Assembly (NCBI RefSeq): GCF_006345805.1
Contig: NC_043001.1
Location: 4,340,001 to 4,404,000, forward strand
Length of the DNA: 64,000 bases
Direction of reading: 5' to 3'
Source of the DNA: Octopus sinensis
Lineage: Eukaryota
This document shows, one piece after another, positions 5,810 through 61,106 of the stretch. A model generated the notes under the pieces. That model made no database searches, was not told the DNA's origin, and saw nothing but the letters and a program-made list of their open reading frames with translations. Both the position numbers and the translations under genes were made by a program. The first letter of the stretch is position 1. Each line of letters starts with the position of its first letter.

Positions 5810-6925
5810 AACTAAAGATAAGACAACTGAACAGATAGACGATACAAATACGGACAGGAAGAACAAGAATTGGACGGTCAGGAAACAAGAACAGGACGAG
5901 TCATTCGTGGCCTTCTTTCTTCAGTCAAATTGTCAGATGTCTTTGAATTTCGGGCAGTTAAACTTGAGAATGTGCGATCTGGTGGCCCCCAAAAATCTAC
6001 GCTAAGAGCATTAGATTTTTTGTAAGAAAGGCAGCGAATGTGTGCGACAACAAAGACAAAAATGACGGAGAACATTGTAGACAATCATAAATAAGAAGAG
6101 TAAAACAACATATCTTTCGGTTGAGGACGAGCGAAATTGCGCTGACGTATATAAAGTGAAACCCTAAAGGCAGGAACATAGGTGATGGCCGTAAGAGGTA
6201 TTGGCGGTTGGCAGTCAGGCCAAGAAAGAAATATCATGGATTGCCGAACACTGGCGACGTGGAAGGAGAAGAGTGGTGTAGGGGGCCGCGACATGGAAGG
6301 ATTAGAAAAAAATTCAAAGGGACAGAGGAAAAGATACATGGGTGATTAACGAGGAGGAAATGTGGGAGCTAAAGATATGGATCCCCAAGAAATTTCAGAA
6401 ACGGTGAGCGAGAAAAAGAAAGGAGGAAGAAATAATGAAGAGGACTAAAAGATAGAGTGAAAGAATCTTGCAAAATTTAGATCCATACTCACTGTAAGGT
6501 GAGAAAAGGTGTATGCACGCTGCTACATGTATATATATAAATATAAAAAATGGAACGAAAATGCAATTGAGGACAAGAAGACAATGAAACAGATAGAGGA
6601 TACAGAGGCGGATAGGAAAAACAACAATAAGAGAACGAAATGGCGTGTCATTCGTTGCTTTCTTTTGTCAGTCAACTTACTAGATGTCCTTACAGTTTCG
6701 GGAAGTTACACTTGAGGCTGTTCGATGTGGTTGCCCCCACCCAAAAAAAGTTTAAGCTAAGAGCATTAGTCTTTTGTAAGAAACCTAGCGAATGTGTGCG
6801 ACAACAAAGACAAACAACGGAGAATATGGTACACGGTGACAAATTAAAAAAACAAGAATATAACAACAGGTGTCTTTCGACTGAGGGCGAATTAGACTGA
6901 GCTGTCGCACTTAAAGTGAAAGTGT
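5810..6925. repeat. Two diverged copies (about 5810-6160 and 6560-6925) of a ~350-bp interspersed repeat
   Basis: Shared blocks gctaagagcattag, gcgaatgtgtgcgacaacaaagacaaa, gtcattcgt and tctttcg..tgag occur in the same order. Confidence 0.75.
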
Positions 6926-6993
6926 AAAGGGATATATATATACATATATATATACATATATATACGCATATATATATGCATATATATACACAC

Positions 6994-7098
<105 letters not shown>

Positions 7099-7560
7099 GT
7101 ATGTGTGCTTGCCTACTAATGCGGAATTAAAACATGTAAAAGGATAAATAAAACCATTAAAATATACAACTAATTTACTTGTACTTATTAGTAGAAGGGA
7201 AAAACGTGTCAACGTATTATTTCACATAGATATATATTTTTCTGGCAACGGAATTTCTGTGCAGCTTTCTTCTGTTCGTATGTTCTACATATAACACGAC
7301 GCGTCGAATACGTTCTCGAAACTTATAACACAACACTCACAAACATGCACGCATGCACAAACACACACACACAAACGCAAACACAGAAGCACACACACTC
7401 ACACACAAATGCTCATTCACAATTATGTAAATTCCATTCCCGTTTAAGCAGTGAATTTAATTCCATTAATCATGACCGCGGGCAGCGTGTATCAAGCGAT
7501 TCTAAAATTGTAATAAGTATTTTTTATTGATATATCCGTAGTTATTGTTTTTTTTATAAA

Positions 7561-7767
7561 CATTTCTTTCAAGGCCCCGAATTTCATCGAATGCCTGAGT
7601 TTCGTTAGATGGACTTAAGTGCCTATTGGTACTTATCTTATCGATCTCCCTTCTAGGTATGAAAGCAAATTCAGCCTCGGTGGAGTTTGAAATCAGAACG
7701 TAACGGCTGACGAATTGATGCTAATCATTTTACCCGCTGCCCTGATAAATTTGTCAACTCGCCGCCT
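7561..7767 (-). mobile_element. tRNA-derived SINE, family B (degenerate)
   Basis: Reverse complement aligns with 30302-30512: aggcggcgag head, gatcgataagataagtacc core. Confidence 0.65.
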
Positions 7768-9282
7768 AAGTTTTTATATAAATATTAAGAAGATTGCGGT
7801 TTGCAATTCCACACATCTACCGCTGTTTCATCACTATATCAGCATTTTTATAATATCTATGCACAATATGTGTTACGTTAAACCTACATAGCGTTTATTT
7901 TTCTTGTACTGCAAAGGAACAACATGTTTATGAACAAAATCCGTTGGCTAAATGAACACGCATTTAGCCTTTGTCTGAGATGGTCTTATCATTTCATTTG
8001 CATAACATACTTAAGCGAAAAAAATAACATAATGAACCATAACTTCTAATTCTCTGGTGGCGATATCGAAGTGAAATAATATATAATTATAATGCTTTGA
8101 GTTTCTGCTTCGATAGAACTAAATACTATTCAGCGAATTTCCCAAGTGTATCCCTAGACTCGAATATGGGCGTTGTGAAGCGTATAACAAATTAAACAGA
8201 ATTTTTAGATATGTAATAAAAACTCTAATCACCCACGCTTAATTATAAATGCACGAATGTATAGCGTATCTAATCTCGATACACAGCGCTTGAAAGTATT
8301 TTCCTTCGCACGCAAATTATACGGTAACTTTAGCGAGAGTAGAATATAGAGAAATTATAAAATACATTCCTAATAATTAGTGTTGTGGCAAATTGTAATA
8401 ATAACAATATGAAACCGTATTAATAATACGTATAATAATGAATATTGTGTAATATGAAGGACTATTACAAATGCTAATAATATGGTATAAAATAAATCGT
8501 CTTCGAGCAATAAGGAATTATAAAAGGGAGAAAACTAATGTGAGTAGAGCAAATTAATATTAAACCAAAATGGAGATTCCAGTTAAGTGAATATTTAAAT
8601 CATTATGGCATTCGCTATTGCCTTAATAATAAGTCGGATAGAATGGGTATATTGGGGTATAACTCAGTATTCGGTTTCCAGGTATCAATTGTAATCACTT
8701 TGGTTAAATATTTTCAAAAACCAAAATAAATGTCACCACATATCCAACGGACACAAATTGAATCAATCATATACTACATCGCATAATAGACGATATTATA
8801 TTTATAGACTTAATGATGGGATATTTAATGAAGTAAATACAAATATTTACGATAAGATTGGTAATAATAAGAATAGAGGAACGAGGCAAAGGGACGTTAA
8901 AGTGGGAGGCAATAACAGAGTCGTAAATAACAACAATACTAATATTTGTGGTGGAAAAGCAACAATTGCGCACGTAGATAGTGATGAGTGTGGCTATGAA
9001 TGAGAACGCGTAGCTAGCGGTATTAATTACCGTTATGAATATATGAATACTAGAAATGATGGAAATCGTAGTACTGATGGTAATTGGATTAATTACATTA
9101 TGAACATACAAGAAAATGAAGACGGATATAATGATGTTGATATAAACTATAATAAATATATTAATATAAGATCCAGGAATTATTAAAGCAATAACAATAC
9201 GGAGATCGGTTATGATAACAATAATCCGATTGGACATAATAATAGCAATATTATCATTATTATCAATAATAATGATGATGAT

Positions 9283-9326
<44 letters not shown>

Positions 9327-9656
9327 TGATGATGATGATGGTGACGATGATAATAATAATAATAATAACAATAACAACAGCAACAGCAACAAGAAGTGGA
9401 AGAAGGAGAAGACGAATAAGAAGAAGAAGGAGACGAAGAAGAAGAAGAAGAAGAAGAAAAAGAAGAAGAATTGTATGTGTCTTAATCTATTTATATATGT
9501 ATATACGCACACACACACACATGCATATATAGGTGGGTGGGTGTTTATGTGAATATATCTATCTATCAATATCTTCTTTTTTTCTTGGATTTTCCTCCGT
9601 TTCCTGTTTCTGACAAAGAGCTTTGCGCAAAACATATATAATCTCTAACTTTATTA

Positions 9657-10092
9657 TACTGCGGCCATGCTAGGGCACCGGCTTGAATTTTCAGTCCAAT
9701 GAGTCGGCCCCAGTATTTATTTGTTTAAATCCCTGATATTTATTATATGGTTTTTCTCTTCGCAGAAGTACTAATTTACGTGGACACAAACACACCAACA
9801 CCGTTTCAAAAGTGGTTGGCAAGTGGCCAAACACAGATACTAACAGACAAACATACAGACACACAGACACACAGACACACACACACATATATATATATGT
9901 GTGTGTGTATCTTCGTGTGTGCCTGTGTATTTATACACGATGAGTTCTTTCATTTATTTCTTCAAAATACACATCCACAGGGCTTTGGTCGTTCCGAGGC
10001 TATAACAGAAGACACTTTCCGAAGGTCCCACGCAGTAAGACGGGACATCGATCCATATGGTTGTGAAATATGCTTCTTTCCTCGCAGCCACC
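9657..10092 (-). mobile_element. tRNA-derived SINE, family A (degenerate)
   Basis: Reverse complement aligns with 16635-17029, including tail ggtgccctagcatggccgcag. Confidence 0.75.
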
Positions 10093-23501: not shown

Positions 23502-24900
23502 TTTGGAGAAAAGGTAAAAACAGCGTTTATAAGATGCTACGATTATTGAAAATAAGGCGTCAAGGAAGAAATTCCAAGTGGTGCTATGTTGCACCATCTC
23601 TTTTTGCAAACAACAATTCCGAATCCACTTCACGTTGTCGGTACTGTGGTGCAGTGTCAAGTAGCTACATGAGATATCATCTATCATGCAACAAGTGAAT
23701 TAATCCAAAGACAGTTGCGAGCCACTTTGGATGTTCTTCGTTCTGACTCATTATATCATGGTTATGCGAAGAAAGAATCTAGCATAATTAATTAAGCGCT
23801 GTCAGTCGATGAGGAAACGAGTCATCATGAGAATACGATCATAAATCGGGAACAATTGATAACAGTCAACAAAGAAGTTCCTTTCTGTTTATGCTAATGA
23901 AATTAATTGTTGTGTTGTCAAAGAACATAAGGATTTGATAGACTGGTAACCTCATGTTAGATAATATTGTAGTTTTAGTGCAACAGGTTATGTTGAATCC
24001 CATGTCGTACAATGCAAAAATTAGTCCGTTCAGAATTACATTTACCATGATTTGGTGTCAAAGTATGCTTGCAAGTAAGTTTTAAGAATTTAAATAAATT
24101 TGCATCATTTGTATTTCATTCTATAGATTTTACACATGATAATACCATAAAAAAATATGCGTACCTATCTTCGCACCCAGTTTCATGAGTAAAGTTGTTT
24201 GTCATTTGTAGAACGGTAACATCACTTGTAAGAACAAACGCCAAAACCACGGAACTCGAACGCAGTGAAATAGACTTCAACAGAAGTCAAACGATATCTA
24301 GTGTCATAATTTAATCGATGTTACCGAAAAATATGGGATAATACTTTTGTATATATTCTAATTATATAAACTAGAAACTTCTAAGGATCTAAATTAATGA
24401 ATTTATCAATAATTGAGGAGCTTGCGACATCTTTCAGCAATTATTGGGACCCGTTTACATGACCAAAATCTCTCTAGATTGAGTGTTTTGTACTCGAAAG
24501 TTCTCACCACGTACATTTTTCACTCACACTAGATTGAATAAACTCGGGATCAGGATTCCGTAATTAGAAGTTTAATATCTGTATCTATTTAAAAGAAATC
24601 ACTGATTGGATTTTTAATTTCTGAGAGCACACAACAAAATATGAAATCCGAGTGGGTCCCAATGACGGTGCCTTGAAAAAAAGAATTAATGTTTGCTTTA
24701 AGCAATGGAATACCAAAATAAATGACTAAGCAAATGTTGCACAAGGTGGGGGTGGGGGACGGATTTAGACGTTCGATTGTACAATATTTTTCTTTAGTTC
24801 ATGTATGTGACTGTGGAGTGCGTATTTTTCCGAGTGTGAACATAGATTGAGTATCAGTAATCATGTATAAGTATATATGTCCTTATACAAATAAAAGCTT

Positions 24901-25045
24901 TATTTACATTATTTACAATTGGCGGATATTTGTCCTCATCTTGTTTATTGTTAACACAACGTTTCGGTTGATATACCCTCCAGCCTTCATCAGGTGTCTT
25001 GGGGAAATTTCGAACCTGGGTTCACATTTCTAAGGTATTTTTCGA

Positions 25046-25142
<97 letters not shown>

Positions 25143-25143
25143 T

Positions 25144-25175
<32 letters not shown>

Positions 25176-25227
25176 ATTATTATTATAATAATTATTATTA
25201 TTATTGTTGTTGTTATTATTATTATTA

Positions 25228-25284
<57 letters not shown>

Positions 25285-25349
25285 TCATTCCTTGGAATCG
25301 AACTCGGAATCTTGGAGTTGGTAGCCCGCGCTCTTAACCACTACGCCAT
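24901..25349 (-). mobile_element. tRNA-head/(AAT)n/hammerhead element (solo Penelope pLTR, SINE-like)
   Basis: Minus strand: atggcgtagtggttaagagcgcggg...gagttcgattcc (A and B boxes, 25281-25349), long (AAT)n/(AAC)n, HHR at 24954-24997, tail tgtaaataatgtaaata. Confidence 0.85.
24954..24997 (-). ncRNA. Minimal type I hammerhead motif (Penelope-type)
   Basis: acac-CTGATGA-a-ggctg gagggtatat caacc-GAAAC-GTT-gtgt. Stem I acac/gtgt; loopless palindromic stem III aacgtt. Confidence 0.7.
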
Positions 25350-35863: not shown

Positions 35864-38169
35864 TTAGTCAATTTAGGGTAGCAAAAAAATTCAATAGAAA
35901 TTTATCGCTACCAGCGGCCTGATGGAAAAGAGAAAATAGTCATCGACTAAATATATAAATATAACAATTTAGGAGTGACCCCAACAGGTCACTCGTCCAC
36001 CAGAAGAGCAGCCATAACTCACACCGCCAAGTAGTAGTAATTCAGAAATTAGGTGAAAATTTAAAAAACATTTACCCTAATTCATCTTTTAGACGTTGCA
36101 ACGTTTCTGTGTCATTAATGATCAAATTAGCTTAATTAAATTAAATTAAGCCAATCTACCATAGGTTACACTTCATCAGTAAAAGACCTGGGAGAGACAA
36201 ATATACACGAGGCGTCTGTATCGATGCCTACGGGATATCTGACTTAAAATTTTCAAGACTGACGTATTCGCGCCAAACTTATCAACAGTAAATATAAACT
36301 GCCGATTCAATCTCAGAATTATTCAGAAAATTATCAATTAGTCAATTTAGGGTAGCAAAAAAATTCAATAGAAATTTATCGCTACCAGCGGCCTGATGGA
36401 AAAGAGAAAATAGTCATCGACTAAATATATAAATATAACAATTAGGAGTGACCCCAACAGGTCACTCGTCCACCAGAAAGAGCAGCCATAACTCACACCG
36501 CCAAGTAGTAGTAATTCAGAATTAGGTGAAAATTTAAAAAAACATTTACCCTAATTCATCTTTTAGACGTTGCAACGTTTCTGTGTCATTAATGATCAAA
36601 TTAGCTTAATTAAATTAAATTAAGCCATCTACCATAGGTTACACTTCATCAGTAAAAGACCTGGGAGAGACAAATATACACGAGGCGTCTGTATCGATGC
36701 CTACGGGATATCTGACTTAAAATTTTCAAGACTGACGCATTCGCGCCAAACTTATCAACAGTAAATATAAACTGCCGATTCAATCTCAGAATTATTCAGA
36801 AAATTATCAATTAGTCAATTTAGGGTAGCAAAAAAATTCAATAGAAATTTATCGCTACCAGCGCCTGATGGAAAAGAGAAAATAATCATCGACTAAATAT
36901 ATAATATAACAATTTAGGAGTGACCCCAACAGGTCACTCGTCCACCAGAAAGAGCAGCCATAACTCACACACCGCCAAGTAGTAGTAATTCAGAAATTAG
37001 GTGAAAATTTAAAAAACATTTACCCTAATTCATCTTTTAGACGTTGCAACGTTTCTGTGTCATTAATGATCAAATTAGCTTAATTAAATTAAATTAAGCC
37101 AATCTACCATAGGTTACACTTCATCAGTAAAAGACCTGGGAGAGACAAATATACACGAGGCGTCTGTATCGATGCCTACGGGATATCTGACTTAAAATTT
37201 TCAAGACTGACGTATTCGCGCCAAACTTATCAACAGTAAATATAAACTGCCGATTCAATCTCAGAATTATTCAGAAAATTATCAATTAGTCAATTTAGGG
37301 TAGCAAAAAAATTCAATAGAAATTTATCGCTACCAGCGGCCTGATGGAAAAGAGAAAATAGTCATCGACTAAATATATAAATATAACAATTTAGGAGTGA
37401 CCCCAACAGGTCACTCGTCCACCAGAAGAGCAGCCATAACTCACACCGCCAAGTAGTAGTAATTCAGAAATTAGGTGAAAATTTAAAAAACATTTACCCT
37501 AATTCATCTTTTAGACGTTGCAACGTTTCTTCTTCTTTCTGTGTCATTAATGATCAAATTAGCTTAATTAAATTAAATTAAGCCAATCTACCATAGGTTA
37601 CACTTCATCAGTAAAAGACCTGGGAGAGACAAATATACACGAGGCGTCTGTATCGATGCCTACGGGATATCTGACTTAAAATTTTCAAGACTGACGTATT
37701 CGCGCCAAACTTATCAACAGTAAATATAAACTGCCGATTCAATCTCAGAATTATTCAGAAAATTATCAATTAGTCAATTTAGGGTAGCAAAAAAATTCAA
37801 TAGAAATTTATCGCTACCAGCGGCCTGATGGAAAAGAGAAAATAGTCATCGACTAAATATATAAATATAACAATTTAGGAGTGACCCCAACAGGTCACTC
37901 GTCCACCAGAAAGAGCAGCCATAACTCACACCGCCAAGTAGTAGTAATTCAGAAATTAGGTGAAAATTTAAAAAACATTTACCCTAATTCATCTTTTAGA
38001 CGTTGCAACGTTTCTGTGTCATTAATGATCAAATTAGCTTAATTAAATTAAATTAAGCCAATCTACCATAGGTTACACTTCATCAGTAAAAGACCTGGGA
38101 GAGACAAATATACACGAGGCGTCTGTATCGATGCCTACGGGATATCTGACTTAAAATTTTCAAGACTGA
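35864..38169 (-). repeat. Left arm of retrozyme-like array: ~4.9 tandem 474-bp units, HHR on minus strand
   Basis: Unit marker gtcaatttagggtagc at 35867, 36341, 36814, 37289 and 37773. HHRs at 36085-36186, 36559-36659, 37033-37134, 37507-37618 and 37992-38093. No ORF >=60 aa in the ORF track. Confidence 0.95.
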
Positions 38170-38194: not shown

Positions 38195-41100
38195 CGTTGC
38201 AACGTCTAAAAGATGAATTAGGGTAAATGTTTTTTAAATTTTCACCTAATTTCTGAATTACTACTACTTGGCGGTGTGAGTTATGGCTGCTCTTTCTGGT
38301 GGACGAGTGACCTGTTGGGGTCACTCCTAAATTGTTATATTTATATATTTAGTCGATGACTATTTTCTCTTTTCCATCAGGCCGCTGGTAGCGATAAATT
38401 TCTATTGAATTTTTTTGCTACCCTAAATTGACTAATTGATAATTTTCTGAATAATTCTGAGATTGAATCGGCAGTTTATATTTACTGTTGATAAGTTTGG
38501 CGCGAATACGTCAGTCTTGAAAATTTTAAGTCAGATATCCCGTAGGCATCGATACAGACGCCTCGTGTATATTTGTCTCTCCCAGGTCTTTTACTGATGA
38601 AGTATAACCTATGGTAGATTGGCTTAATTTAATTTAATTAAGCTAATTTGATCATTAATGACACAGAAACGTTGCAACGTCTAAAAGATGAATTAGGGTA
38701 AATGTTTTTTAAATTTTCACCTAATTTCTGAATTACTACTACTTGGCGGTGTGAGTTATGGCTGCTCTTTCTGGTGGACGAGTGACCTGTTGGGGTCACT
38801 CCTAAATTGTTATATTTATATATTTAGTCGATGACTATTTTCTCTTTTCCATCAGGCCGCTGGTAGCGATAAATTTCTATTGAATTTTTTTGCTACCCTA
38901 AATTGACTAATTGATAATTTTCTGAATAATTCTGAGATTGAATCGGCAGTTTATATTTACTGTTGATAAGTTTGGCGCGAATACGTCAGTCTTGAAAATT
39001 TTAAGTCAGATATCCCGTAGGCATCGATACAGACGCCTCGTGTATATTTGTCTCTCCCAGGTCTTTTACTGATGAAGTGTAACCTATGGTAGATTGGCTG
39101 AATTTAATTTAATTAAGCTAATTGATCATTAATGACACAGAAACGTTGCAACGTCTAAAAGATGAATTAGGGTAAATGTTTTTTAAATTTTCACCTAATT
39201 TCTGAATTACTACTCCTTGGCGGTGTGAGTTATGGCTGCTCTTTCTGGTGGACGAGTGACCTGTTGGGGTCACTCCTAAATTGTTATATTTATATATTTA
39301 GTCGATGACTATTTTCTCTTTTCCATCAGGCCGCTGGTAGCGATAAATTTCTATTGAATTTTTTTGCTACCCTAAATTGACTAATTGATAATTTTCTGAA
39401 TAATTCTGAGATTGAATCGGCAGTTTATATTTACTGTTGATAAGTTTGGCGCGAATACGTCAGTCTTGAAAATTTTAAGTCAGATATCCCGTAGGCATCG
39501 ATACAGACGCCTCGTGTATATTTGTCTCTCCCAGGTCTTTTACTGATGAAGTGTAACCTATGGTAGATTGGCTTAATTTAATTTAATTAAGCTAATTGAT
39601 CATTAATGACACAGAAACGTTGCAACGTCTAAAAGATGAATTAGGGTAAATGTTTTTTAAATTTTCACCTAATTTCTGAATTACTACTACTTGGCGGTGT
39701 GAGTTATGGCTGCTCTTTCTGGTGGACGAGTGACCTGTTGGGGTCACTCCTAAATTGTTATATTTATATATTTAGTCGATGACTATTTTCTCTTTTCCAT
39801 CAGGCCGCTGGTAGCGATAATTTCTATTGAATTTTTTTGCTACCCTAAATTGACTAATTGATAATTTTCTGAATAATTCTGAGATTGAATCGGCAGTTTA
39901 TATTACTGTTGATAAGTTTGGCGCGAATACGTCAGTCTTGAAAATTTTAAGTCAGATATCCCGTAGGCATCGATACAGACGCCTCGTGTATATTTGTCTC
40001 TCCCAGGTCTTTTACTGATGAAGTGTAACCTATGGTAGATTGGCTTAATTTAATTTAATTAAGCTAATTTGATCATTAATGACACAGAAACGTTGCAACG
40101 TCTAAAAGATGAATTAGGGTAAATGTTTTTTTAAATTTTCACCTAATTTCTGAATTACTACTACTTGGCGGTGTGAGTTATGGCTGCTCTTTCTGGTGGA
40201 CGAGTGACCTGTTGGGTCACTCCTAAATTGTTATATTTATATATTTAGTCGATGACTATTTTCTCTTTTCCATCAGGCCGCTGGTAGCGATAAATTTCTA
40301 TTGACTTTTTTTGCTACCCTAAATTGACTAATTGATAATTTTCTGAATAATTCTGAGATTGAATCGGCAGTTTATATTTACTGTTGATAAGTTTGGCGCG
40401 AATACGTCAGTCTTGAAAATTTTAAGTCAGATATCCCGTAGGCATCGATACAGACGCCTCGTGTATATTTGTCTCTCCCAGGTCTTTTACTGATGAAGTG
40501 TAACCTATGGTAGATTGGCTTAATTTAATTTAATTAAGCTAATTTGATCATTAATGACACAGAAACGTTGCAACGTCTAAAAGATGAATTAGGGTAATGT
40601 TTTTTTAATTTTCACCTAATTTCTGAATTACTACTACTTGGCGGTGTGAGTTATGGCTGCTCTTTCTGGTGGACGAGTGACCTGTTGGGGTCACTCCTAA
40701 ATTGTTATATTTATATATTTAGTCGATGACTATTTTCTCTTTTCCATCAGGCCGCTGGTAGCGATAAATTTCTATTGAATTTTTTTGCTACCCTAAATTG
40801 ACTAATTGATAATTTTCTGAATAATTCTGAGATTGAATCGGCAGTTTATATTTACTGTTGATAAGTTTGGCGCGAATACGTCAGTCTTGAAAATTTTAAG
40901 TCAGATATCCCGTAGGCATCGATACAGACGCCTCGTGTATATTTGTCTCTCCCAGGTCTTTTACTGATGAAGTGTAACCTATGGTAGATTGGCTTAATTT
41001 ATTTAATTAAGCTAATTTGATCATTAATGACACAGAAACGTTGCAACGTCTAAAAGATGAATTAGGGTAAATGTTTTTTAAATTTTCACCTAATTTCTGA

Positions 41101-41652
41101 ATTACTACTACTTGGCGGTGTGAGTTATGGCTGCTCTTTCTGGTGGACGAGTGACCTGTTGGGGTCACTCCTAATTGTTATATTTATATATTTAGTCGAT
41201 GACTATTTTCTCTTTTCCATCAGGCCGCTGGTAGCGATAAATTTCTATTGAATTTTTTTGCTACCCTAAATTGACTAATTGATAATTTTCTGAATAATTC
41301 TGAGATTGAATCGGCAGTTTATATTTACTGTTGATAAGTTTGGCGCGAATACGTCAGTCTTGAAAATTTTAAGTCAGATATCCCGTAGGCATCGATACAG
41401 ACGCCTCGTGTATATTTGTCTCTCCCAGGTCTTTTACTGATGAAGTGTAACCTATGGTAGATTGGCTTAATTTAATTTAATTAAGCTAATTGATCATTAA
41501 TGACACAGAAACGTTGCAACGTCTAAAAGATGAATTAGGGTAAATGTTTTTTAAATTTTCACCTAATTTCTGAATTACTACTACTTGGCGGTGTGAGTTA
41601 TGGCTGCTCTTTCTGGTGGACGAGTGACCTGTTGGGGTCACTCCTAAATTGT

Positions 41653-41657
<5 letters not shown>
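38195..41657 (+). repeat. Right arm of retrozyme-like array: ~7.3 tandem 474-bp units, HHR on plus strand
   Basis: Predicted GTC cleavage triplets end at 38206 (partial HHR), 38681, 39155, 39629, 40102, 40577, 41050 and 41523, a spacing of 473-475 bp. The arm ends in (TA)n. Confidence 0.95.
38587..38688 (+). ncRNA. Type I hammerhead ribozyme (representative of 12 complete copies in the array)
   Basis: tctttta-CTGATGA-a-[long stem II; gtgt/acac in other copies, gtat here]-a-GAAAC-gttgcaac-GTC-taaaaga. Perfect 7-bp stem I, intact core, palindromic stem III acgttgcaacgt. Confidence 0.85.
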
Positions 41658-41674
<17 letters not shown>

Positions 41675-47797: not shown

Positions 47798-47973
47798 GTT
47801 CTATATCTAAGAGATGAGGAATTATTTGCATTATTTACATTTGAAGGATATTTGTCCTCATCTTTGTTGTTAACACAACGTTTCGGCTGATATACCCTCT
47901 AGTCTTCATTAGGTGTCTTAGGGGAAATTTCGAACCTGGGTTCTCATTCTTAATGTATTTTTCGATGTTGTTG

Positions 47974-48004
<31 letters not shown>

Positions 48005-48005
48005 G

Positions 48006-48038
<33 letters not shown>

Positions 48039-48214
48039 ATTATTATAATTAGTATTATCATTATTATAATTATTATAATTATAATTATTATTATTATTAT
48101 TATTGTTATTGTTGTTGTTGTTATTATTATTGTTACTACTACTATTATTCAGGTCACTACCTGAATCAAACTCGGAATCTTGGGGTTAGTATCCAGCGTT
48201 CGTAACCACTACGC
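47798..48214 (-). mobile_element. tRNA-head/(AAT)n/hammerhead element, solo copy
   Basis: Collinear with 24901-25349 and 49453-49691. HHR at 47873-47916 has a degenerate core (ctaatga). Confidence 0.85.
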
Positions 48215-49067
48215 TTTTGTGTTGAAAATATTGTATTGAATCTTGGGAGCGGCGTCTTTACTATTTAATTCTTTATCGGTTAACTATTTAACCAATTAAC
48301 TATCTGCCTTAGGTTAACCAAACATTCAACTTTGTCAAAGTTCCTTTCGTTGCCATCCGTGACCTGAGTAATGACACGCCCTACCCATTACTCCACATCT
48401 ACCTCACGTCTCTGCCTAATTATGTGTGTGAGTGTCTCATGTTGTAGGTGTATATTCTGTATGCAGGTGAATGAGAAAGTAGATGAGACATAGGTAGCGA
48501 TACAAAGAGAGACTGTGTGCGGTATAGAGTGGGTGTGTATCTGTCTGTTTACTTCTTTAACCCTCTCTCCCTCTACACACACATACACACACATTATAAA
48601 GAGAACCTCTGTGTTTGTGATTGGCCTTCGGATATGTTCTTGAGGTCGTCGTTGAATGTTTTTGTATGTAGTGTGGTGGTGTTAGTGCTTCTCTTGTTTT
48701 GGGAATCGTACGGTTAAAATTACACTCTAATTACTCATGATCTTTTATGGTAATAACTCAGATGTTTATGCGCATATGAACTACTTACCATATATTAACG
48801 ATTAGTCTCTTGTAAAGGGCATGGTGCACGACATTTCTGAAGCCTAAAGAAAAGATATGTTAATCCTGTAATATTTCACTTTCTTGAGGTTGATATCGGC
48901 CGTAAGAACAATATTATAGACTTTGATTATTAAGTCTTTTGTCGAATGATAGATTACAATTCTCTGATGCCAAATTTCACCGAGAAATATTTGATCAAAG
49001 TAACTTTTTGAGGGAACACAGCATTGCAATGTGCAGTGTACTTGAAGTAAAGAAGAAGTAAATGTAT

Positions 49068-49691
49068 ATTATTTACATTATTTACATTTGAAGGATATTT
49101 GTCCTCATCTTCTTTGTTGTTAAAACAACGCTCCGGCTGATATACCCTTCAGCCTTCATGTCGCCCCCTCAAAATAAAGGTAGACGAACATCGCAAAACT
49201 GTGACACGAGGAGATATTTATGAATTGGGTATAGTTGATCATGTATTAAAAAACGAAAACCAGCTCCCCCTGTTGAAATAATAGACAGAGAACACCAATG
49301 GAAAATACGGAAACTAAAAGAAGCAGCACATATGCTAGGACGCAACAACCTCCTAAGCAGACCGAATGCAGATATGAGCAGCATATAGGAACCGGTATTA
49401 AGGAAGGATATTTATAAGCGCTAAAATTCACTCCATAATTGCATACGAGCATATGGCGTAGTAGTTGAGATCGCGGGCTTCTAACCCCAAGATTCCGAGT
49501 TCGATTCCAATTATTATTATTATTACTATAATTAAAATAACATCGAAAATGTACCTTAGGAATGAGAACCGAGGTTCGAAATTTCCCCAAGACACCTGAT
49601 GAAGTGTATATCAGCCGACACGTTGTGTTGTGACAAATATCCGTCAAATGTAAATAATGTAAATAATTCCTCATCTCTTAAATATAGAACT
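49068..49691 (+). mobile_element. 5'-truncated Penelope-like retroelement with upstream inverted pLTR fragment
   Basis: 49068-49159 is an inverted copy of the pLTR 3' end. 49159-49424 encodes a GIY-YIG C-terminus. 49425-49691 is the pLTR with tRNA head (49453-49510) and a degenerate HHR (49592-49628). Confidence 0.85.
49159..49424 (+). pseudogene. GIY-YIG endonuclease C-terminal fragment (Penelope ORF end)
   Basis: CRPLKIKVDEHRKTVTRGDIYELGIVDHVLKNENQLPL / frameshift / IIDREHQWKIRKLKEAAHMLGRNNLLSRPNADMSSI*EPVLRK, matching R.L..R..EH, H, and R...EA..(L)N-type GIY-YIG motifs. Confidence 0.8.
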
Positions 49692-59797: not shown

Positions 59798-60440
59798 CGT
59801 GGTTACATGTTAGCCTCTAACTTTCCGCATGTGTCAAAGTTCTACCATCTTCTCATACTCCACTTCATTCAGATTTGACAATATATTATTATTTATTGGA
59901 AATCTATTCTTTACATTTGCGCGGCCTTATTTCTTTAAATATATTCCTTTGAATATCAGCAAATATTACGTGTAATTTTATTGTGCTGCTGTGAGATTGA
60001 AATAGATTTTAAAATATTAAATTATACCCGATAGTATTCTTAATGTTATTAATGAAAACGTCATATATAACATGCTATTTTTACATATAAATAAGAGATT
60101 GTGCACGTAATAAATATTAGATTGAGTGGCACCTGTATGAACAGGTTTGGCTTCCATTCACTCAAATCAATTTATTGTCTCTCTGTCTGGGTTTGTAAAA
60201 CAGTCTCAAATCAGTGGGGTTATAAATCTACATCTCATGTTCAGAAGATAAAGATTGCCCATGCGTTATGACGCTGTTCAGCTAGCGAATATAGTTATGG
60301 TTCTCATTCTCAATTTGATGTATAATGTAGGTAGGTAAAACATACTAAGGTGTAATTAACCGAATGGAAAAGTTGCAAGGCATTGTAATACGTAAATTTA
60401 GCTGATCAAGCTTAAAGGCTTTTTCTGTTATGACTCACCA

Positions 60441-60586
60441 ATATCGAAAAATTCCTTAGGAATGAGAAACCAAGTTCGAAATTTCCCTAAGACACCTGAT
60501 GAATGCTGGAGGGTATATGAGCCAAAACGCTGTGTTAACAACAAACAAGATGAGGACAAATGTCAAATGCAAATAACGTAAATAAT
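60441..60586 (+). mobile_element. 3' part of the tRNA-head/HHR pLTR family
   Basis: atcgaaaaattccttaggaatgagaa...gacacCTGATGAatgctggagggtatatgagccaaaacgctgtg...gatgaggacaaat. Confidence 0.8.
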
Positions 60587-61106
60587 ATATAACGATGTAT
60601 AATGTAAACAAAAACATATATTTTCTAAAGCACACACAGAATAGTATTGGGTTGGAAACTTTCGACCATATTTCCTCTTGATTAGAGCTAACACTGAGCT
60701 TAACAACTCCGAAGACATGCAAAATTGTATTTTAAAATCATCTCTGGATATACGTTATTTTCAAGTATGTTATAACCCGCAGGCACAAAAACAAATTACA
60801 AACAGCCGTAATATTTTACATTCATGTTTGAAGTATAAAAATTATGAATGAAATGTGTTATTCCTTTATCGTGCCTCCAATAATAAAGGCTATTCGGTGA
60901 AAGCTGAAAAAACTGATTGCCTCCAATCAGTTAGAACCAAAGAGAAGTACCTTCCTTTCTATATTTTTACTAAACTTTATATTTATCCCAAATGAAATCG
61001 TATGCAATCGTCCGTTTGATCTGAAAGCAATATCTCTGAGTATTACACTAAATATAACAATCACTTGCAGTTTGTCACCCTGTTTTAATATTTATGAATC
61101 CCATAA

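Follow-up and report, generated by a model that had tools for sequence, protein, structure and literature searches.

Penelope-like elements (PLEs) carry minimal hammerhead ribozymes in their terminal repeats (pLTRs), which the available part of PMC4209133 defines by core motifs, an extra base after position 9, a G10.1-C11.1 pair and a palindromic helix III. The ORF of the anole PLE PAc begins within the hammerhead, and internal start of its reverse transcription at the tail was established in vitro (available part of PMC11167929). The pLTR start of Penelope and Chlamys is a Pol II start (PMC8557442, in the portion at hand), so that Pol II and Pol III alike would be expected to leave 5' ends clustered at the edge of the pLTR. 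Among non-autonomous elements, SINEs, SM-alpha and TRIMp3 are known to have Pol III promoters, and the author of PMC10886601 holds, in the accessible sections, that the autonomous partners of TRIMp3 must use Pol II. Hammerheads of pLTRs, Pol III and hammerhead in SM-alpha, Pol III promoters in TRIMp3 and PLE-derived retrozymes have each been described separately. A PLE family with a tRNA head in its terminal repeat is a variant hitherto undescribed in the literature searched; it is real and family-wide, and is presented here from a locus of Octopus sinensis.

Anatomy of the locus and of the family unit

The window, a stretch of 64,000 nucleotides of contig NC_043001.1, holds at 49065-49691 a dead, 5'-truncated PLE copy. 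It opens with an inverted and 5'-truncated terminal repeat on the minus strand (49065-49159), composed of the 3' half of the hammerhead and a short tail, which joins the ORF remnant via a 3-nt overlap. The remnant (49160-49417, plus strand, as are all following parts) is a damaged 3'-terminal piece of the PLE ORF and codes the C-terminal part of the GIY-YIG endonuclease. It is disrupted in three places: the frame shifts near 49275, a stop codon comes too early at 49386-49388, and a short stretch is deleted immediately upstream of the family stop codon (TAA, 49415-49417). A spacer kept in nearly all ORF-bearing copies (49418-49439) leads to the family 5'-end hot spot (49440-49441), a putative transcription start 15/14 nt upstream of A-box G9. 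The tRNA-derived head (49447-49509; A box 49454-49464, B box 49497-49508) is without the final ~11 nt of the family head. It is followed by an AT-rich trinucleotide tract (about 49510-49541), which in the family is (AAT)n of variable length, by an ATG that is the putative start of the ~835-aa RT-endonuclease family ORF (49562-49564), by a minimal type I hammerhead within the first codons of this ORF (49591-49629), and by a tail with 9-nt repeats (49630-49691), whose 3' end is the longer of the two that the family prefers. The hammerhead is dead because helix II has a 7-nt deletion and GACA replaces GAAA. All the parts listed in an earlier note on this DNA (inverted repeat, ORF remnant, boxes, tract, hammerhead remnant and tail) were recovered at the positions it gave, and its distance of ~28 bp between the ORF stop and the tRNA-like head agrees with the position of tRNA nucleotide 1 at 49447, which is 29 nt past the family stop codon. 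Three further copies lie in the window: two on the minus strand without ORF, starting at the head (24900-25349) and at the A box (47798-48214), and one on the plus strand with hammerhead and tail only (60440-60589).

Also in the window is a tandem array with a 474-bp unit, split into two blocks of opposite orientation, 35864-38169 (minus strand) and 38195-41665 (plus strand), of 4.8 and 7.3 units that are 97-99% alike. All 12 copies contain a type I hammerhead motif, in which helix II is long and helix III palindromic. It appears to be a young non-LTR retrozyme-like array, and its sequence is unrelated to the tRNA-headed PLE.

The family unit of ~2.6 kb has the order tRNA-like head, (AAT)n, ATG, hammerhead, tail, RT, GIY-YIG, stop and next head, and tandem units exist (loci L269 and L274). 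The ATG, found ~20 nt past the (AAT)n tract, opens a frame running through hammerhead and tail. This segment has two common lengths, 9 nt apart, and is free of stops in the ORF frame in 14 of 24 natural copies and in none of them in the other two frames. The total ORF has 835-838 aa, compared to 826 and 834 aa of homologs whose N-terminus aligns just downstream of the tail. The tail is not the end of the element: it continues into coding sequence. The terminal repeat thus appears to be the 5' end of the gene, with hammerhead and tail as the predicted first codons of the ORF, and so the head would form nearly the whole 5' UTR and not merely a 3' appendix. A profile of 164 hammerheads, whose core is fixed by the search pattern, matches the minimal features given in the part of PMC4209133 consulted. 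Their stems pair in 87% of cells, with no covariation beyond that of shuffles, and Rfam gave no tRNA or hammerhead among the 150 of 173 window matches listed nor in a better-preserved copy. The traits of EN+ PLEs are present, namely a single RT/GIY-YIG ORF, tandem pLTR units, inverted pLTR pieces and the minimal hammerhead motif.

Note that another repeat and a trinucleotide-tailed LINE are often found inside the (AAT)n tract (L228:3100-5760, L040, L049, L052, L057), suggesting that the tract is a target for insertion or recombination.

The ORF-to-tRNA-head junction is fixed in this PLE family. A junction query gave 2892 candidates, and the 40 that were scored all span the junction; the ORF is followed by the head in 29/29 other fetched junction loci, a count drawn with a query biased toward the junction. 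The bias was remedied with 55 copies chosen by the RT region or the 5' part of the ORF and not by the junction. The ORF end is kept in 36 of them, with a full head next in 30; the remaining six are deletions or breaks, three with part of the head, and no other standard junction occurs among the 36. The junction is also bridged by contigs from four other organisms (C-F) and by RNA reads of a fifth (B). It is therefore not unique to the locus; uniqueness was the outcome that the earlier note had named as fatal to its reading.

A 24-nt head pattern and a 26-nt tail pattern have 907 and 5446 exact matches, respectively, in the 2.72-Gb genome, which exceeds chance since the reversed controls give 0 in both cases. 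Blind sampling of 599,800 bases met three insertion sites, all three starting at the head; scaled from these three, the genome total is about 14,000 sites, with a wide interval of roughly 3,000-40,000. Roughly ten thousand SINE-looking octopus repeats are in practice PLE terminal repeats. The copies are dispersed as singles or inverted pairs and tied to the ORF, and do not form non-coding tandem hammerhead arrays. In the pattern-selected set they are ~93-95% identical to the family majority (94.7% for head-start copies, n=53, versus 93.3% for ORF-bearing copies, n=14). No intact ORF copy was found, the longest natural frame having 551 aa. Due to this identity and to the lack of an intact ORF among the copies, the family looks old and inactive in this genome. 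Three unplaced contigs (L232, L233, L234) carry copies of the near-full-length insertion L221 that are 97-98% identical to it and are likely its haplotype or segmental duplicates.

The encoded protein and the tRNA-derived head

The RT is present, with RVT_1 above the Pfam cut-off in two family copies. Pfam GIY-YIG has no match in the window peptides, in 11 peptides or in 40 alignment members, and the 551-aa frame has no Pfam match of any kind. The Atlas clusters closest to the C-terminal domain are GIY-YIG clusters (0.96), with the family on 15-21% of their members, and 4 of 27 distant homologs match GIY-YIG, two above cut-off and two jointly with RT. Homologs with both RT and GIY-YIG were found, with the single ORF order RT then GIY-YIG of EN+ PLEs. 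The endonuclease catalytic residues are conserved, as is a CCHH set (C46, C48, H67, H84), and linker cysteines were not seen. A structure model (pLDDT 92.7) matches I-TevI (Z 9.7, rmsd 2.6, 86 residues aligned), followed by other GIY-YIG nucleases; the best Foldseek match is also I-TevI, but with an E of only 0.17, and a PDB sequence search was empty. An earlier model from a shallow alignment (pLDDT 48.6) was set aside. Homologs, Atlas clusters and predicted fold together identify the C-terminal domain as a PLE GIY-YIG endonuclease. The GIY-YIG assignment made in the earlier note thus stands on these grounds and fails by the Pfam HMM; the peptide, for which a negative HMM search had been named as a refutation, keeps its identity as a PLE GIY-YIG by fold and homologs though the Pfam model missed it. 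The clade is likely Penelope/Poseidon. The named homologs of the protein come from Octopus, and the closest PLE relatives share 42-68% protein identity with it. Many proteins ~60% identical to this endonuclease (P0001-P0078) are encoded on long contigs of another source.

The head is closest to the host tRNA-Arg(TCT), the best of eight isotypes tried, with 51/79 identical columns (~65%; z 6.7), and the Ala, Cys and Ser tRNAs are nearly as close. tRNA-Thr, the first guess, and then tRNA-Ser were considered as source, neither surpassing Arg(TCT). Both boxes, A and B, are preserved, but the cloverleaf is lost. ARAGORN detects no tRNA for this family. The tRNA derivation put forward in the earlier note is hence borne out by the boxes and by the alignment to host tRNAs, on which the probable origin of the head rests, and finds no echo in ARAGORN or Rfam. 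The search for a donor SINE found none. The fetched DNA holds two further tRNA-headed, SINE-like families (L335:2331, L336:2567 and L020:2898), which are only ~50% like the head.

Copy ends, terminators and proposed transcription from the head

Copy ends were mapped on 91 of the 907 exact head matches, the first listed, from contigs C1-C2. Family sequence is lost 0-18 nt before A-box G9 in 70 of these 91 copies, 16 of them exactly at -15. The 5' ends lying 7-18 nt before the A box account for 55/91 heads, a rate of 55/604 per nt (0.091) versus 19/4051 (0.0047) upstream, which is a 19-fold difference. A short palindrome with a stem of only 4 bp spans the hot spot; fold-backs there make up 11 of the 70 junctions, and without them the mode is still -15 (12/59). 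The 5' ends of 72 tail-selected copies fall in the hammerhead region (18), in the tract (14), inside the head (4, in its 57 nt), between +6 and -27 (25) and further upstream (11). Loose ends at -15 are found in four of four other organisms. Pol III usually starts 13-14 nt before A-box T8, and the family 5' boundary lies 13-14 nt before it.

The head is where most genomic copies start, and about three-quarters of the heads have no ORF upstream. The tail and the ORF start are spanned by 30 of 54 copies, eight of which reach the head: four begin at its start (-4, -5, -10 and -15), two within it, and two run into the preceding unit. A head-start unit is joined behind an ORF fragment in 6 of these 30 tail-to-ORF copies. 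The simplest reading of these ends is an RNA with its 5' end at -14/-15 that continues into the ORF. The 3' ends of 72 copies form two clusters ~30 nt apart (15-25 nt and 46-61 nt past the anchor), which is the PLE tail signature with an optional 30-40 bp tail and two RT start sites. The inverted tail copy that the earlier note had placed upstream of the ORF is present and is a family-wide trait: an inverted element piece precedes 62/91 head-bearing copies and 0/91 controls (49/70 head-start and 13/21 ORF-bearing copies). Head-start and ORF-bearing copies are inserted by the same machinery, because both share the 3' tail signature and the inverted upstream pieces.

The sense strand of the family majority has no TTTT over 2.6-2.7 kb; in decayed copies the density is 0.63 per kb. 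At equal T content, each intact ORF of two other PLE families from this genome carries 9-13 TTTT (3.8-4.9 per kb), and ten other retroelement ORF pieces have 23 in 8.0 kb, while a third control PLE family has only 1.3-2.2 per kb; note that the control ORFs belong to another PLE clade. A metagenome scan for DNA of headless close PLE relatives found none. Base shuffling predicts 5.0 TTTT (P 0.006), synonymous shuffling 2.5 (P 0.049), third-position sampling 4.0 (P 0.011), a Markov-1 model 2.4 (P = 0.098) and a Markov-2 model 1.6 (P = 0.18). GGGG is likewise absent from the family majority (expected 3.9). Low Phe content explains part of the deficit and is the same in the closest long homolog (14 vs 14 Phe). 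As a sign of Pol III read-through, the deficit is suggestive and not decisive.

RNA-seq of organism B gave 6,700-9,900 family reads per run, equally from both strands, of which 71-76% run into unlike sequence as read-through, with no pile-up of starts or ends and no discrete transcript. Unstranded libraries and an old family would hide Pol III RNA; the RNA-seq lends Pol III no support. No recurring intron-like gap was detected in the terminal repeat among the joints listed (15 of 84), and no clear intron acceptor motif in the repeat, the RNA data being unstranded read-through.

Judged from these data, the whole element is probably transcribed from the head, which would be its promoter, read by Pol III or at the least driving transcription. 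The capture of a tRNA promoter within the pLTR, the central proposal of the earlier note, gains support as a putative promoter and fits the 5'-end pile-up at the expected Pol III start. Pol III would bind the A and B boxes, start at the boundary (-14) and, meeting no terminator, traverse the ORF and, where units are in tandem, continue into the following one. R2 elements provide a precedent for translation of uncapped RNA. The RT of the element would start internally at the tail. A start at the tail near the RNA 5' end would copy only tail, hammerhead, tract and head, yielding the SINE-like head-start copies that are the majority, and a start at a downstream tail would yield ORF-bearing, 5'-truncated copies like that at 49065-49691. 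At the RNA 5' end the RT would often fold back or jump, which would produce the inverted pieces as well as the ORF fragments with an attached head-start unit. In its strict form, for which we see an even chance, the 2.6-kb protein-coding RNA would itself be a Pol III transcript, the tRNA-derived promoter having replaced a Pol II one and all terminators having been purged, and the SINE-like family would be a by-product of the same RNA.

The data must be weighed against other origins of these ends. Pol III could make only a short head-to-tail RNA, a SINE that arose within the PLE and uses its RT, while expression of the ORF would depend on Pol II, either reading in from host promoters or starting at a promoter that went unseen. 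This would account for the excess of heads devoid of upstream ORF and for the abundant both-strand read-through in RNA-seq, and would suit the view that Pol III is too weakly processive for autonomous elements (PMC10886601, accessible sections). It is nevertheless unlikely: from the head to the ORF end there is no terminator and thus no reason for Pol III to stop, four of the eight informative copies start at the head and enter the ORF, and by their identity to the majority the head-start copies look barely younger than those bearing the ORF. The head might instead be a passenger, a tRNA-derived SINE fragment fixed in the master element, and the pLTR start could reflect either a conventional Pol II start or stalling of the RT at the palindrome, lying next to the A box by coincidence. 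We find this distinctly improbable, given that both boxes stayed intact though the stems were lost, that the boundary has the usual Pol III geometry and that the joints listed show no recurring gap. The palindrome across the hot spot, where the 11 of 70 junctions fold back, favors an RT stall, but its stem is short and the 59 other junctions still peak at -15. The weakness of the TTTT deficit under Markov models and the Pol II starts of the Penelope and Chlamys pLTRs (available part of PMC8557442) remain on the side of the passenger. Practically no credence is left for the chance insertion of an independent SINE beside a PLE fragment at 49065-49691 only. Head-start copies are common, with two in the same window, yet this explanation is refuted by the identical junction in the 30 of 36 ORF-selected copies and in other organisms; in addition, hammerhead and tail belong to the coding part of the PLE.

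Comparison with known systems

Closest to the octopus family are PLEs of the Penelope/Poseidon type such as the anole PAc, which in its available description (PMC11167929) likewise has a single ORF in which GIY-YIG follows RT, pLTRs built from tandem units, inverted pieces at insertions, a hammerhead overlapping the ORF start and two RT start sites with an optional 30-40 bp tail. A tRNA-derived promoter is not part of that description. In D. virilis Penelope and in Chlamys-3 the pLTR contains the start site and an intron (PMC8557442, portion at hand), whereas in the octopus PLE the 5' UTR is made of tRNA head and microsatellite and no intron was seen. Other octopus PLE families (L357-L362) have zinc-finger-type linkers and intact ORFs of 775-883 aa in many near-identical copies, by which they are probably young; an A/B-box scan of these families found no tRNA head.

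The octopus head has the SINE2 traits of tRNA derivation and A and B boxes. The head-start copies resemble tRNA-derived SINEs, including the octopus families OK, OR1 and OR2, in their A/B-box head, short length and tail recognised by a partner RT. SINE tails derive from LINEs, which act in trans. SINE2 elements are non-autonomous and separate from their partner, whereas the octopus head is fixed inside an ORF-bearing element and its body consists of the first codons of the ORF. OK, OR1 and OR2 were reportedly described by Ohshima and Okada in 1994. OR1 and OR2 are CORE SINEs, whose heads the octopus head may resemble. The short head-to-tail form may already have been named as a SINE, the OK family being a candidate. 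The available part of PMC13282606, on O. vulgaris repeats, gives Penelope and SINE totals only. In the full-text literature searched, no PLE or other autonomous element with a tRNA-derived promoter came to light. The organization of the octopus family would let a SINE arise in cis, with SINE and partner in one molecule.

Non-LTR retrozymes (bioRxiv 10.64898/2026.07.22.740005, available text) are likewise non-autonomous hammerhead repeats derived from PLE pLTRs, but they form tandem arrays, unlike the dispersed octopus copies; that text has no occurrence of tRNA, Pol III, promoter or octopus. The TRIMp3 elements Cassandra, Helenus and Ajax also have a small-RNA-derived Pol III promoter in the terminal repeat, probably acquired via SINE insertion (PMC10886601, accessible sections). 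These LTR elements measure 0.3-1.3 kb, have PBS and PPT and are non-autonomous, while the octopus carrier is an RT-encoding PLE. If the preferred reading, transcription from the head by Pol III, is true, a PLE whose 5' UTR is a tRNA head and which has no terminators is a counter-example to the argument that autonomous partners must use Pol II, and it raises the question of how translation proceeds on a Pol III transcript whose first codons contain a hammerhead. The Schistosoma SM-alpha elements share with the octopus head-start copies the outline of a Pol III-type promoter followed by a hammerhead (available parts of PMC6765202 and PMC8490949). As described there, SM-alpha is non-coding, has a canonical hammerhead and is without known coding partner; the octopus family differs in having its promoter-like head and minimal coding hammerhead within an autonomous-type PLE, and offers a model for the origin of SM-alpha-like elements.
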